Sequence record: NC_055712.1
Strand: one strand, 5' to 3'
Origin: Escherichia phage phT4A
DNA length: 64,000 nt
Below the pieces are notes generated by a model, which was not told the DNA's origin, searched no databases, and was given only the letters and a program-made list of their open reading frames with translations. Positions 4,560 through 47,693 of this stretch are shown here, in pieces. Numbering within the stretch: the first letter of the stretch is position 1; every line of letters starts with the position of its first letter. Position numbers and translations under genes: made by a program.

Positions 4560-6054
4560 ATGAATGACATTAAAGTAGTAGTAAAATCCTCTGGTGTACG
4601 CCAGCCGTTTGACAAAGAAAAAATATACAAAGTGCTCAAGTGGGCCTGTGATGGTCATAATATCGATGTTCGTGCATTCCTTGAAAATGTATTAGAACTG
4701 ATCCGCGATGGTATGACTACCAAACAAATTCAACGTATCGCTATCAAGTATGCAGCAGATCATATTTCTGTTAAAGAACCGGATTGGCAATACGTAGCAT
4801 CGAATCTTGAAATGTTTGCATTGCGTAAAGACGTTTACGGTCAGTTCGATCCTATCCCGTTCTACGATCACATCGTTAAAATGGTTGAAGCGGGGAAATA
4901 CGATAAAGAGATCCTGGAAAAATACAGCAAGCAAGATATTCAAGTTTTCGAACGTGCAATTGATCATGATAAGGATTTTGAATTTTCGTATGCTGGTTCC
5001 CAACAGTTAATCGGGAAATATCTGGTTCAGGATCGCGATACTGGCGAAATCTTTGAAACCCCTCAGTATGCGTTTATGCTTATTGCGATGTGTCTGCATC
5101 AGGAAGAAACTGGGTTAGCACAGGTTACGCATATCGTTGATTTTTATAACGCAATTTCCGATCGCAAACTGTCTCTACCGACTCCAATTATGGCGGGTGT
5201 ACGTACTCCTACGCGCCAGTTCTCCAGTTGTGTAGTAATTGAATCGGGTGATTCTCTTGGTTCTCTTAACGCTGTAACCTCTGCGATCGTGAAGTATATT
5301 TCACAACGTGCTGGTATTGGGGTTAACGCGGGACATATTCGCGCAATGGGTTCTAAAATCCGTGGTGGTGAAGCTGTTCATACTGGTGTGATTCCTTTCT
5401 GGAAACATATTCAAACCGCTGTTAAATCCTGTTCACAGGGTGGCGTTCGTGGTGGTGCTGCAACACTGTATTATCCTTTCTGGCATCTGGAAGTTGAAAA
5501 CCTTCTGGTGTTGAAGAACAACAAAGGCGTAGAAGAAAACCGCGTTCGTCATCTTGATTATGGTGTACAGCTTAACCAGTTGATGTATAAACGCTTAATG
5601 AATCGTGATTACATTACGCTGTTTAGTCCGGATGTTGCTAACGATCGTCTGTATGATCTGTTCTATGAAGCTGATCAGACTGCATTTGAAGAACTGTATG
5701 AAAGCCTGGAAAAAGATCCAACTGTTCGTAAGAAACGCATCAAAGCGGTTGACCTGTTCCAACTTTTAGCACAGGAACGCGCACAGACAGGACGCAAATA
5801 CATTTTCAACACTCATCACGTCAACCAACAGGGTAGTTTTACGGTTCCTGTCCGTATGTCTAACCTGTGTTGTGAGATTGCGATCCCAACGTCGCCGCTG
5901 GATGACGATGATAAAATGGCTGGTGAAATCGGATTGTGTACGCTAATGGCTATCGTTCTGGATAACGCTGATATCAGCGAATTCCCGAAACTCACGCGTA
6001 TTGCAGTACGTGCGCTTGTATAACCTGTTGGATTACCGTAACTACCCTGTAAAA
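4560..6054 (+). CDS. nrdA: ribonucleotide reductase large subunit, 5' part only (frameshifted near 6019, then lost in gap)
   Basis: ATP-cone N-terminus, catalytic NLCCEIAIPT; frame stops at 6023 but the next frame reads DNLLDYRNYPVK, the expected NrdA continuation; C-terminal ~250 aa missing. Confidence 0.9.
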
Positions 6055-6154
6055 NNNNNNNNNNNNNNNNNNNNNNNNNNNNNNNNNNNNNNNNNNNNNN
6101 NNNNNNNNNNNNNNNNNNNNNNNNNNNNNNNNNNNNNNNNNNNNNNNNNNNNNN
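6055..6154. other. assembly gap (100 N)
   Basis: Run of exactly 100 n; flanking sequence is not collinear (nrdA interior on left, non-nrdA sequence on right), so true length is unknown. Confidence 0.99.
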
Positions 6155-9038: not shown

Positions 9039-9421
9039 ATCTGTTTATGACTATTGGCGTTCCGGGTAGTGGAAAAACTACCTGGGCGCATGAGAAAGCC
9101 CGTGAATTGGGTAATACTGTTACGATCTCTCGCGATGATCTGCGTAGCTCTTTGTATAATGCNNNNNNNNNNNNNNNNNNNNNNNNNNNNNNNNNNNNNN
9201 NNNNNNNNNNNNNNNNNNNNNNNNNNNNNNNNNNNNNNNNNNNNNNNNNNNNNNNNNNNNNNGATACCAGGACAGATTTTGAAGTAAAAGAAGAAATTTT
9301 GTTTGACAAGATTTTAGATAAGTATTATCCTGTTATTGCAGTGGACGATAGAGACACTCCGGTCGGGATGTGGCGAGCAAACGGGATTCCGTGCTTACAA
9401 GTCGATTATGGTGATTTCTGA
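9035..9421 (+). CDS. pseT: polynucleotide 5'-kinase/3'-phosphatase, interior lost in gap
   Basis: N-term kinase P-loop MTIGVPGSGKTTWA; C-term phosphatase VIAVDDRDTPVGMWRANGIPCLQVDYGDF matches T4 Pnk C-terminus as recalled; about 200 aa missing. Confidence 0.85.
   Translation: MNLFMTIGVPGSGKTTWAHEKARELGNTVTISRDDLRSSLYNXXXXXXXXXXXXXXXXXXXXXXXXXXXXXXXXXXDTRTDFEVKEEILFDKILDKYYPVIAVDDRDTPVGMWRANGIPCLQVDYGDF
9163..9262. other. assembly gap (100 N)
   Basis: Run of 100 n inside pseT. Confidence 0.99.
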
Positions 9422-11408: not shown

Positions 11409-11485
11409 GGCCCCTTAGCTCAATAGGTAGAGCTAATCACTCATAATGGTTAGGTTCCCGGTTCAAGTCACGGGAGGGGCCACCA
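11409..11485 (+). tRNA. tRNA-Met (or Ile2) anticodon CAU, CCA encoded
   Basis: Acceptor GGCCCCT/AGGGGCC, D arm GCTC/GAGC, anticodon loop CTCATAA; T arm CCCGG-TTCAAGT-C(A)CGGG has a 1-nt bulge. Confidence 0.7.
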
Positions 11486-12433: not shown

Positions 12434-12459
12434 GGCTATCTTCGGATAGCCTTATTTTT
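12434..12459 (+). terminator. rho-independent terminator
   Basis: GGCTATC-TTCG-GATAGCC then TTATTTTT. Confidence 0.75.
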
Positions 12460-12462
12460 GGG

Positions 12463-13035
12463 GTGTCTATGCGCTTTTTAAAGTATGCAAGTTGGATCGT
12501 ACTCGTCCCTCTTGACATTATTACTGGAGTATTAGCAATTCTGTTTGCCCCGTTTGTTGTACCATTCTACAACGAGAAAACAGGGCATCTTCCTAAAGGC
12601 TTCCGGTGGATGGAAACCTTCGATAACCCTATTGATGGTGATGGTGGACATATCCGCCGTTGGGCGTCCATACGCTATCATCTGGGGGATTTTGGGGTGT
12701 ACATGCAACGTGTTGGCTGGTTGTGGAGAAACAAGGCTTATAACTTCGCATATCACGTTTTAGGACGTGAAGCGACAAGCAAATTCAACTGGAAAGGCAA
12801 CCCAAAAACAGAAGGTGGGCCGAACCCTGTAAATCATGGGTATCTGCTCATGTGGAACGAATCAGCATGGGGTTTGTACGTTTACAAACCGTGGCTACGG
12901 ATCCACAAAGTGCAATTCTGTTTGCGCGTTTATGCTGGATGGAAACTGAAACAAGAAGTTAGCGACCCAGTTAACCTGGATCGTGCAATGCTGGCGTTTC
13001 ATTTCAACCCGTTCAGGTATTATGTAATCAAGTAA
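12463..13035 (+). CDS. membrane protein, unknown function (190 aa)
   Basis: GTG 12463 or ATG 12469; TM segment [23 protein letters not shown]; Trp-rich C-terminal domain. Confidence 0.65.
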
Positions 13036-13045
13036 AGGTAATACA

Positions 13046-13408
13046 ATGAAAGCATTTCAAATTTTAGAAGGTTTGCATACTGGTACGATCTATCTGGAAG
13101 AAGGTAACGACGTTCGGATCGTAGTATCAAAAACATTAACTATGGATTCTGTGATCGGTAAAGCTCGCGTTACTCCGTTTGAAAAGCGAGAGATTGAGAT
13201 CGAATATCAACCAACTGTTAAGGTGGAAGGTGGACAGCATTTAAACGTAAACGTGTTGCGCCGCGAAACTCTCCTGGATGCGGTTGAACATCCTGAAAAA
13301 TATCCACAATTGACGATCCGTGTATCTGGTTATGCAGTGCGTTTTAACTCACTGACCCCTGAACAGCAACGCGACGTTATCGCCCGAACCTTTACAGAGA
13401 GTCTATAA
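13046..13408 (+). CDS. grcA: autonomous glycyl-radical cofactor (GrcA/YfiD-like)
   Basis: C-terminal [56 protein letters not shown] is almost identical to E. coli GrcA as recalled; N-terminal ~55 aa diverged. Confidence 0.85.
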
Positions 13409-13677
13409 TGGCAATTGATGATATCAAGGGTTATAAACCCCATACTGATAAAAAAGTAGAAACGGTAAACCGTATCAAAGATGCTGAAAATGCATTAGGT
13501 GCAATCCTGGAAGATATCGAACAGCGACTATCAAATTCAGATATTGATTCACTGATAGAGGAAGAATTAGATGAGGTGCTTGAACGTATCCATCAAATTC
13601 AACTAGCGAAAGACCGACTGAAAGAAGCCTCTATGTGGGCGTGTCGTGCGGTGTTTCAGCCTGACGAAAAATATTAA
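13408..13677 (+). CDS. hypothetical acidic protein (89 aa)
   Basis: ORF track; TAATG overlap with grcA stop. Confidence 0.6.
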   Translation: MAIDDIKGYKPHTDKKVETVNRIKDAENALGAILEDIEQRLSNSDIDSLIEEELDEVLERIHQIQLAKDRLKEASMWACRAVFQPDEKY

Positions 13678-13684
13678 AAATCAA

Positions 13685-13718
13685 GCCGTTGCCGAAAGGT
13701 AGCGGCTTTTTCTTTTTT
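13685..13718 (+). terminator. rho-independent terminator
   Basis: GCCGTTGCC-GAAA-GGTAGCGGC then TTTTTCTTTTTT. Confidence 0.7.
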
Positions 13719-36940: not shown

Positions 36941-37040
36941 NNNNNNNNNNNNNNNNNNNNNNNNNNNNNNNNNNNNNNNNNNNNNNNNNNNNNNNNNNNN
37001 NNNNNNNNNNNNNNNNNNNNNNNNNNNNNNNNNNNNNNNN
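36941..37040. other. assembly gap (100 N)
   Basis: Run of 100 n joining two unrelated coding frames. Confidence 0.99.
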
Positions 37041-46346: not shown

Positions 46347-47693
46347 TTAGAAATTGTCTTCGACAAACGCCGCGAGACGGGAACGATACACTGTATCAAG
46401 AATGATATGGCTTGAGTGTTCGTATTCTTTCAGCTTTTCAACAGCCCATACAAACCCGTTGTTTACGGCAGTGTTTCGAGGGTTGTCGATCTGCTTAATG
46501 TTCCCGCATAGTATCAGAAGTGTGTTCTCTCCGCAACGAGAAATGATAGATTTAATTTCGTGGTTGCTAAGGTTTTGACATTCATCAACAATTAGCACAG
46601 AACCTTTGCCCGGATCCGGATGTCCGATACTGCGACCACGGAAGTAATACAGGCTAGGGAATTGCACCACCCCTTTTTCAATCAAACCTTCAATGTATTT
46701 TTCAGATTCCGGATTATCCTTAAACAGAATATTCAGGCTAGTAATACAAGGTTCAATAGAAGGCCGGAGTTTTTCGCCCAATGTACCAGGAAGGAAGCCG
46801 ATTTCACTTGATAACGGGCTATCTGACTTCACATACATCAAGTTAGCGTAATGTCCACTATTAACCAGGTGCATAGCACCGGAAACAGCAAGCATTGTTT
46901 TACCAGAACCAGCGCCGCCCATAATGGTAGCAACATCGATTTCATTGCTCATAATGGATTCAACGAAAGCCGCTTGCAGAGAATCACGGGGCTGGATAGC
47001 TTTCATGAGTTTGCGTTTCATCGCCTGTTCATGCTTAACAGGTAAGACATTCAAGCAAATCTCATCAGCAGTCACTACACGCCCGACTAACTCACCATTA
47101 GAGGTAATGTACTGGTTAGGATAAAAATCTTCGTCAGGAAGCGAACTGTAAGTGATTTGGGCTACATTATCCGTATATCCCAACACTTCCACGGTATCCC
47201 AGAAATCAGGGATCTCTACGTAACCGGAATACAACACATCGCTATCTTTTAACGTATCGTCGCCAGTATACTGTTCTACCTTACACCCACGGGACATTGC
47301 GATCAGCAACATCATAATATCGCGAGTAACTAAGGTTGCATCCTGCTGCATACAAGTTTCAATGATTCGTTCGTCTTGCTTGTCAAGAGCAAACGTTTTG
47401 TTTCCGACATAATCAACCACTTTAAGGGTGATAGTGTCAGACAGTGCTGGGTTTGTCAGGTTTAAAGGAATACCTGATTTCGTAATCGCATCATATGACT
47501 GACCGAAAATAACTTTTGACAGAAGCCGGATCGCCAATCGTGCTTCGTGCGCTGTTCGTTCTTTCGTTTTCAGGTGATCTAATTCACCCATAGTAGCAGA
47601 GGTAATAATGATTTCTGTACCAGGTTGAGTGAATGAATAGATTGAATAGGGGTTACTAATCAAAACATTGGTGTCTAATACGTATTTTGACAT
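46347..47693 (-). CDS. phoH: PhoH-family ATPase with N-terminal PIN domain
   Basis: PIN YVLDTNVLISNP, Walker A GGAGSGKT, Walker B LIVDECQN. Confidence 0.85.
   Translation of the reverse strand: MSKYVLDTNVLISNPYSIYSFTQPGTEIIITSATMGELDHLKTKERTAHEARLAIRLLSKVIFGQSYDAITKSGIPLNLTNPALSDTITLKVVDYVGNKTFALDKQDERIIETCMQQDATLVTRDIMMLLIAMSRGCKVEQYTGDDTLKDSDVLYSGYVEIPDFWDTVEVLGYTDNVAQITYSSLPDEDFYPNQYITSNGELVGRVVTADEICLNVLPVKHEQAMKRKLMKAIQPRDSLQAAFVESIMSNEIDVATIMGGAGSGKTMLAVSGAMHLVNSGHYANLMYVKSDSPLSSEIGFLPGTLGEKLRPSIEPCITSLNILFKDNPESEKYIEGLIEKGVVQFPSLYYFRGRSIGHPDPGKGSVLIVDECQNLSNHEIKSIISRCGENTLLILCGNIKQIDNPRNTAVNNGFVWAVEKLKEYEHSSHIILDTVYRSRLAAFVEDNF

Follow-up and report, generated by a model that had tools for sequence, protein, structure and literature searches.

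A phage-encoded GrcA of Slopekvirus type whose host-identical radical domain likely reflects unequal purifying selection rather than recent exchange with a host

How does a phage come to encode a protein of which one half is identical, residue for residue, to that of a host? The question is raised by a small gene of Escherichia phage phT4A (record NC_055712.1), located in the stretch of 64,000 nucleotides that was analyzed here as a whole and that we call the window. The product of this gene ends in a segment, V60 to L120, that is identical at 61 of 61 positions to GrcA, the autonomous glycyl-radical cofactor, of Klebsiella pneumoniae, a natural host; the segment before it is strongly diverged. 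An earlier note on this DNA recognized a phage GrcA here and traced the mosaic either to recent recombination with the grcA of a host or to strong constraint on the module that bears the radical. Can these be told apart? Mosaicism at the level of the protein, even at 61/61, is no evidence of recent transfer; it is the synonymous sites that decide.

The locus is laid out as follows.

12434-12451, plus strand: terminator-like hairpin that closes the preceding unit, from a pattern scan, with a terminator annotated at the equivalent site in phage KP27
12463-13035, plus strand: upstream ORF of 190 aa in the same transcription unit as grcA, matching phrog_2143 and equivalent to KP27_093
13035-13038, plus strand: Shine-Dalgarno-like AAGG, 7 nt 5' of the grcA ATG, with a ribosome-binding site annotated at the equivalent place in the KLB3 record
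13046-13408, plus strand: the grcA (vs.6-type) coding sequence, with ATG, 120 codons and TAA, from the ORF list and matches to Pfam, NCBIfam, PDB and PHROG
13046-13222, plus strand: N-half of phage grcA, codons 1 to 59: a diverged segment, presumably for docking, whose counterpart in bacterial GrcA is the disordered, homologous stretch of residues 1-66
13223-13405, plus strand: C-half, the glycyl-radical domain, codons 60 to 120 (V60-L120), from the alignments with GrcA and with PflB 696-759
13274-13291, plus strand: codons 77 to 82 (L-D-A-V-E-H), CTGGATGCGGTTGAACAT, holding both of the residues at which the C-half departs from E. coli GrcA
13328-13330, plus strand: GGT, coding for Gly95, the glycine of R92-V-S-G-Y-A-V that is predicted to bear the radical, aligned with the glycyl-radical motif RVSGYAV found in E. 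coli GrcA and in PflB
13408-13677, plus strand: downstream ORF of 89 aa, whose ATG shares 1 nt with the stop codon of grcA (TAATG); its KP27 equivalent, KP27_095, carries an annotation of similarity to Vs.4
13683-13708, plus strand: terminator-like hairpin with an 11-bp stem and a T-run at the end of the three-gene unit, from a pattern scan, with a KP27 terminator at the equivalent site

The radical glycine of GrcA is numbered Gly102. In PflB, it is G734 (PMC8683613).

The gene is the middle ORF of a three-ORF unit (12463-13035, 13046-13408, and 13408-13677) bracketed by terminator-like hairpins, and the KLB3 homologue of the 190-residue upstream product is annotated with a transmembrane domain. 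The 5 kb around grcA are 99.6% identical to Klebsiella phage vB_KpnM-VAC66 and at least 95% identical to about 110 further records, and the record of vB_KM5a1-KLB3 (99.2% identical) is classified as Straboviridae, Slopekvirus, in keeping with the enterobacterial host that the note expected. The 120-residue product is 100% identical to a protein of Klebsiella phage vB_KleM_kp20 and 99.2% identical to that of phiKp_17, where it is annotated as grcA, and several near-identical phage records already annotate the gene as “autonomous glycyl radical cofactor.” It is a recognizable accessory gene, already known and annotated in Klebsiella Slopekviruses; its interest is therefore modest, and for the window itself little is at stake.

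The wider window has peculiarities of its own. Three runs of exactly 100 N (6055-6154, 9163-9262, and 36941-37040) look like scaffold gaps. The first of these cuts nrdA, the ORF at 4560-6023 ending halfway through the barrel domain, and compared with KP27 about 2.3 kb is missing there (the 3' part of nrdA, nrdB, KP27_075, and denA). ARAGORN predicts a single tRNA-Met (CAT) at 11409-11485; KP27 and KLB3 annotate a second tRNA (Gln) directly downstream, and KLB3 calls the first tRNA-Ile, so that the annotations conflict. Away from grcA lie a 403-residue ORF with a SPASM iron-sulfur domain, maybe a radical-SAM enzyme (52174-53385, minus strand), and a separate ORF with PIN and PhoH domains (46347-47693, minus strand).

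What kind of protein does grcA encode? The Pfam model Gly_radical scores 66.5 bits (cut-off, 22.2), and the best NCBIfam hit is TIGR04365 (GrcA), at 151.6 bits over residues 18-120 of 120, a score that falls below the 170-bit equivalog cut-off because the N-half is diverged. Among structures, E. coli GrcA (PDB 6OWR) is matched at E 4.7e-41, with residues 19-120 aligned to 25-127 of the chain, and crystal structures of PflB, the pyruvate formate-lyase (PFL), are matched at E 1.6e-27, with residues 57-120 aligned to PflB 696-759. The match to the phage family phrog_1209 spans the full length (E 2.6e-59, 1-120 of 121). The makeup is that of a GrcA: a small stand-alone protein ending in a PFL-type radical domain with RVSGYAV and beginning with a segment homologous to bacterial GrcA (hhalign, 97.2%). 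A tblastn search places homologues in 1,586 of the 50,697 phage records, including T-even (vs.6), T5-like, and jumbo phages, and 1,531 phage records cover at least 80% of the phage GrcA protein. KP27_094 is annotated as similar to Vs.6, T4 vs.6 is named GrcA by RefSeq, and vs.6 is kept in 6 of 6 T4-like genomes (PMC1524935). The Pfam, NCBIfam, PDB, and PHROG matches thus bear out the identification as a phage GrcA. The T4 precedent that the note invoked, Y06I, holds as well: Y06I is annotated as vs.6, and its restoration of PFL is attributed to Wagner 2001 in the account given in PMC8683613.

How unequal are the two halves? Against E. coli GrcA, V60-L120 is identical at 59 of 61 positions, with L77 in place of E and E81 in place of K; the note had put about two differences in the last ~62 residues, and the agreement with K. 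pneumoniae is stronger still. Residues 1-59 are identical to E. coli GrcA at 14 of 59 positions (24%). The note had proposed to give up the mosaic if an alignment revealed uniform moderate divergence; at 59/61 in one half and 14/59 in the other, the protein mosaic stands. The note's description of the first ~55 residues as unrelated in detail is right about divergence but not about unrelatedness. Taken alone, the phage and bacterial N-halves align by hhalign with a probability of 97.2% (E 3.7e-11, 58 columns) and by pairwise BLASTP at E 1.6e-5, and Q5-I6, R24, K29, D34, R48-E49, E53, and P56 are kept between them. The phage gene is a full-length GrcA homologue with very uneven divergence and not a fusion of a foreign N terminus to a host fragment.

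The unevenness extends beyond this pair. Within phages, the N-half is under purifying selection (pN/pS of 0.08/0.48 against Miller and 0.28/0.80 against T2), and between the window and T2, dN is 0.35 in the N-half and 0.033 in the C-half. Amino acid identity between E. coli and Morganella GrcA is 0.59 in the N-half and 0.97 in the C-half; for E. coli and Vibrio, the values are 0.66 and 0.93. The same contrast in rate, in milder form, holds among bacterial GrcAs and between phages. In YfiD, the E. coli GrcA, residues 1-60 are disordered in solution and residues 61-127 are structured; the structured domain duplicates the PFL C terminus and inserts into the active site, and the N-half aids binding to cleaved PFL, with fourfold better activation, and is dispensable for catalysis (PMC8683613). 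The boundary of conservation in the phage protein coincides with this published domain boundary. We posit that the mosaic pattern arises from a structured radical domain that would have to fit both PFL and its activating enzyme, PflA, and from a disordered docking half that would be less constrained.

Is the identity of the C-half a trace of recent exchange? On that alternative, a diverged phage gene recently received its C-half from the grcA of a host, as the sharp mosaic and the 61/61 match to K. pneumoniae GrcA might suggest and as can be demonstrated to happen in sister lineages (T4, T2, and Jiaodavirus). The DNA of the window argues otherwise. A donor was sought among 5,426 complete E. 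coli genomes, 80 of 586 GTDB gammaproteobacterial grcA relatives, and K. pneumoniae and K. aerogenes chromosomes filed wrongly in PLSDB, with 83 bacterial grcA genes compared at the DNA level. The 183 nt of the C-half are 81.7% identical to the best of the 5,426 E. coli genomes, 80.3-80.6% to K. pneumoniae grcA, 80.7% to K. aerogenes grcA, and 79-83% to the closest among the 80 of 586 gammaproteobacterial relatives, the rest being lower; among the 83 genes compared and the 5,426 E. coli genomes, no bacterial grcA was more than 83% identical to this DNA. Against K. pneumoniae, the C-half has a pN of 0 and a pS of 0.78, which means that its synonymous sites are saturated, and pS against the seven hosts compared is 0.57-0.83. 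Against Klebsiella sp. WOUb02, the N-half (pS 0.72) is as saturated as the C-half (0.82). The window and K. pneumoniae have 26 of 61 codons in common, compared with 25.5 expected (z 0.15) when phage codons are sampled independently according to codon usage in the window. The longest exact run that they share is 17 nt, against 85-131 nt in converted phages, and the window gene does not carry the marks by which we recognize a host-converted allele, namely, C-half DNA at least 93% identical to host grcA and long exact runs. A metagenome scan for the exact 44-nt degenerate C-half pattern returned two contigs only, both of them phage with a phage-type N-half, which also speaks against a recent copy.

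Given the low DNA identity, the saturated synonymous sites, and a codon identity at chance level, we reject recent recombination for the window gene at this sampling and regard it as extremely improbable. Host-to-phage conversion is undetectable in this gene, and any unsampled donor would need to differ from the grcA of K. pneumoniae by at least ~11%. The note's first explanation thus fails, and its second, constraint on the radical-bearing module, is the one that the substitutions support: extreme purifying selection on the radical domain appears to explain the host-identical C-half. How long has this C-half been in the lineage? Its pS against the Pseudotevenviruses Nando and Invicta is 0.45-0.47, similar to the 0.59 of the N-half, which implies that it has been resident since before that split. 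C-half DNA at least 90% identical to that of the window is present in about 110 phage records, as many as expected for the genus, and together these observations indicate that the C-half and the remainder of the gene have long passed down the lineage together by vertical descent. In total, we consider it likely that 13046-13408 encodes a phage GrcA, the counterpart in Slopekvirus of its orthologue T4 vs.6/Y06I, and that its mosaic results from unequal purifying selection rather than from recent exchange with a host.

Several observations made along the way stand apart from this argument. The grcA of Pantoea sp. GD03673 (L042) is 83-85% identical in nucleotides to the C-halves of the window and Earwig, the highest of the bacteria examined, and has 33 of 58 codons in common with the window and 35 of 58 with Earwig, against 25 expected (z 2.4-3.0); after 83 comparisons, this excess is borderline. 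Between the window and Citrobacter phage Miller, pS is 0.72 in the C-half and 0.48 in the N-half. The idea that the window C-half is the outlier here was rejected, as comparison with Nando, Invicta, and Earwig makes Miller the outlier. The Miller copy (L085, 1501-1863) has a pS against its relatives of 0.59-0.74 in the C-half and 0.43-0.50 in the N-half, with K/K at residues 77 and 81, and its C-half may have had a separate history. The databases contain oddities as well: an enterobacterial-type grcA turns up on a contig labeled Vagococcus sp. WN89Y, PLSDB files a 5.37-Mb K. pneumoniae chromosome as a plasmid, and grcA is frameshifted in the record of K. aerogenes NCTC10006.

Does host DNA enter this gene in other phages? 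We compared the copies of T2 (L083, 3001-3363), T4 (L102, 3058-3420, minus strand), Mosigvirus RPN187 (L097, 769-1131), and a Jiaodavirus (L086, 601-963). In T2 vs.6, the C-half is 96% identical in nucleotides to E. coli grcA, with a pS of 0.13 and an exact run of 85 nt, and the N-half is 44% identical; the jump to high identity falls exactly at the codon for E61 (EGGQH). The T4 vs.6 C-half matches E. coli grcA at 177 of 183 positions (96.7%) in one strain and at up to 98.4% in others, over a tract of ~170 nt, and that of RPN187 is 97% identical to E. coli grcA. The Jiaodavirus C-half resembles K. pneumoniae grcA instead (93% over 183 nt, 96-97% over the aligned tract, with an exact run of 131 nt). 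Identical codons number 54 of 60 between T2 and E. coli and 51 of 60 between Jiaodavirus and K. pneumoniae. On a wider scale, 489 phage records match nt 200-384 of E. coli grcA at 95-99%, and 77 match nt 199-374 of K. pneumoniae grcA at 95-99%.

In which direction did this DNA move? Between E. coli and Citrobacter grcA, pS is 0.36 in the N-half and 0.35 in the C-half; the host genes are not mosaic, and the direction is therefore from host to phage. The N-halves of T2 and Jiaodavirus are both of Tevenvirinae type (71% amino acid identity) and their C-half DNA comes from different hosts, which implies at least two independent events. The tracts in T4, T2, Mosigvirus, and Jiaodavirus thus indicate that host-to-phage gene conversion occurs in this family. 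These conversions in sister lineages look solid, and we hold to them with high confidence. Among the phage records compared with host grcA, the host-like tract is absent from Karamvirus, T5-like phages, and the Slopekvirus/Pseudotevenvirus clade. We speculate that, in T4-like phages, the half of grcA that encodes the radical domain may be converted again and again by homologous host DNA, as is visible in the DNA of Tequatrovirus and Mosigvirus with E. coli and of Jiaodavirus with Klebsiella. A literature search found no paper on phage-host grcA recombination, and with its coverage incomplete this is no proof of novelty.

If conversion recurs in the family, could the window copy be an old instance of it? 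A Klebsiella-type conversion, of the whole C-half or of a short patch at codons 77-82, might have taken place in the Slopekvirus ancestor and since been ameliorated, its synonymous sites having drifted to phage codon usage. The sister lineages prove the mechanism, and the window has exactly the host-type L77/E81 where the closest Pseudotevenviruses have E/K or K/K. Furthermore, the 18 nt of the patch match Klebsiella sp. WOUb02 grcA at 18 of 18 positions, two synonymous sites included, and K. pneumoniae at 16 of 18, and 7 of the 18 differ from phage Nando. However, L..E is also present in PflB and in distant RB49-like and Proteus phage copies, so that the L..E state at 77/81 is probably ancestral, and in a conserved region such as this one, chance alone gives unrelated pairs exact runs of 20 nt. 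The similar synonymous divergence of the two halves from Nando and Invicta also weighs against an old conversion, as does the tendency of nonconverted phages to mismatch hosts at 77/81 (Enterobacter phage Nando has E/K and Enterobacter has M/E). We consider such an ameliorated conversion in the Slopekvirus ancestor quite unlikely, and a microconversion at codons 77-82 is disfavored by the probably ancestral state of L..E. The broader proposal, that the window copy is an old, fully ameliorated product of recurrent conversion with the L77/E81 patch (13274-13291) as its last trace, we rate as unlikely. The reading that we prefer for the window gene remains unequal purifying selection.

What might such a protein do during infection? 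Formate is the reductant of the anaerobic (class III) ribonucleotide reductase, NrdD. In PMC8683613, which cites Wagner 2001, biochemical validation as a “spare part” protein is granted to E. coli YfiD and T4 Y06I and to no others: the radical is installed by the PFL-activating enzyme, PFL-AE, and the activated protein forms a complex with O2-cleaved PFL and restores its activity. The rescue of PFL by T4 Y06I is described there as in vitro data. By analogy, we propose that host PflA, the radical-SAM enzyme that activates PFL, would install a radical on Gly95 of the phage protein. When O2 cleaves host PFL at G734, the phage protein would dock on the cleaved enzyme via its N-half, and its C-terminal 61 residues, identical to those of host GrcA, would replace the lost radical domain; the complete identity of the module implies that every contact that it makes with PFL and PflA would be preserved. 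The conversion of pyruvate to acetyl-CoA and formate could then resume in cells infected under micro-oxic conditions. The likely benefit would be a supply of acetyl-CoA and ATP that is maintained during infection, and the resulting formate may also feed a phage NrdD.

Could the phage protein instead serve nucleotide metabolism directly, as a spare part for a phage NrdD or a substrate of NrdG, or else, as a decoy, titrate host PflA or PFL? Slopekviruses encode NrdD and NrdG (KP27 encodes NrdD, NrdG, NrdA/B, NrdC, and NrdH), homologues lie beside nrd genes in some phages, and a role in nucleotide metabolism was speculated upon by Nolan et al. 2006 (PMC1524935). Against this, the radical domain is PFL-type and not NrdD-type, being identical to that of host GrcA and matching PflB 696-759 at E 1.6e-27, and no NrdD model appears among the family hits. 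Because the module is PFL-type, a spare-part role for NrdD is unlikely. No nrd gene is next to grcA in the window; no NrdD was found in the window, where the sole glycyl-radical motif is that of grcA, and KP27 has its NrdD and NrdG in another part of its genome. The T4 orthologue, moreover, restores PFL activity in vitro in the account given in PMC8683613. We thus regard any of these other functions as very unlikely, and repair of PFL as the working proposal. In three distant phages, the homologue adjoins genes related to ribonucleotide reductase: in Yersinia phage fHe-Yen9-04 (L088, 595-957), the grcA homologue lies two genes after nrdD; in Vibrio phage D479 (L091, 442-813), a ribonucleotide reductase small subunit is directly upstream; and in kaaroe (L089, 595-1011), NrdC.11 is downstream.

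The presence of grcA suggests that Slopekviruses protect the fermentative metabolism of the host when oxygen intrudes. The most interesting result, the host-specific tracts in the T-even and Jiaodavirus copies, lies outside this window, and there is some irony in the outcome: the recombination idea is wrong for the gene that raised it and correct for T4, T2, a Mosigvirus, and Jiaodavirus. The result is a natural contrast between a ~170-nt, near-identical host tract in some virulent lineages and the same protein with randomized codons here. Could this contrast be a small model for measuring both recombination from host to lytic phage and selection on the radical domain? We think that it could.

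How, then, does the window protein compare with known systems? Like the GrcA of E. coli and Klebsiella (YfiD; 6OWR, TIGR04365/IPR011140), it is a full-length homologue with a two-part architecture and RVSGYAV. Unlike bacterial GrcA, it is 7 residues shorter and has an N-half that is 24% identical; its gene sits in an early-type gene cluster of a lytic phage, whereas the bacterial gene adjoins ung, and at synonymous sites the phage gene and the host gene show unrelated choices of codon. The likeness to T4 vs.6 (Y06I) is closer: both proteins have 120 aa, with 91 of 120 residues identical (76%; 34 of 59 in the N-half and 57 of 61 in the C-half), and both genes are followed by small ORFs of Vs.4/Vs.5 type. 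The T4 C-half, however, carries the ~170-nt host-derived tract, and the window gene has no such tract against any host compared. The neighborhoods differ too, the window grcA lying between tRNA/gp31 and ligase and T4 vs.6 between denV and regB. With the radical domain of PflB (696-759; PDB 1H16 and others), the phage protein shares one 10-residue strand, one 22-residue stretch, and L..E at 77/81. It is without the ~700-residue catalytic barrel and the catalytic cysteines of PflB and therefore would work only as a module inserted into damaged PFL. Finally, it shares its radical domain with the short GrcA2 and GrcA3 proteins (NF008341 and NF038360; ~80 aa), which score 109 and 93 bits over residues 59-120, both below cut-off; unlike them, the phage protein retains the long N-terminal segment.
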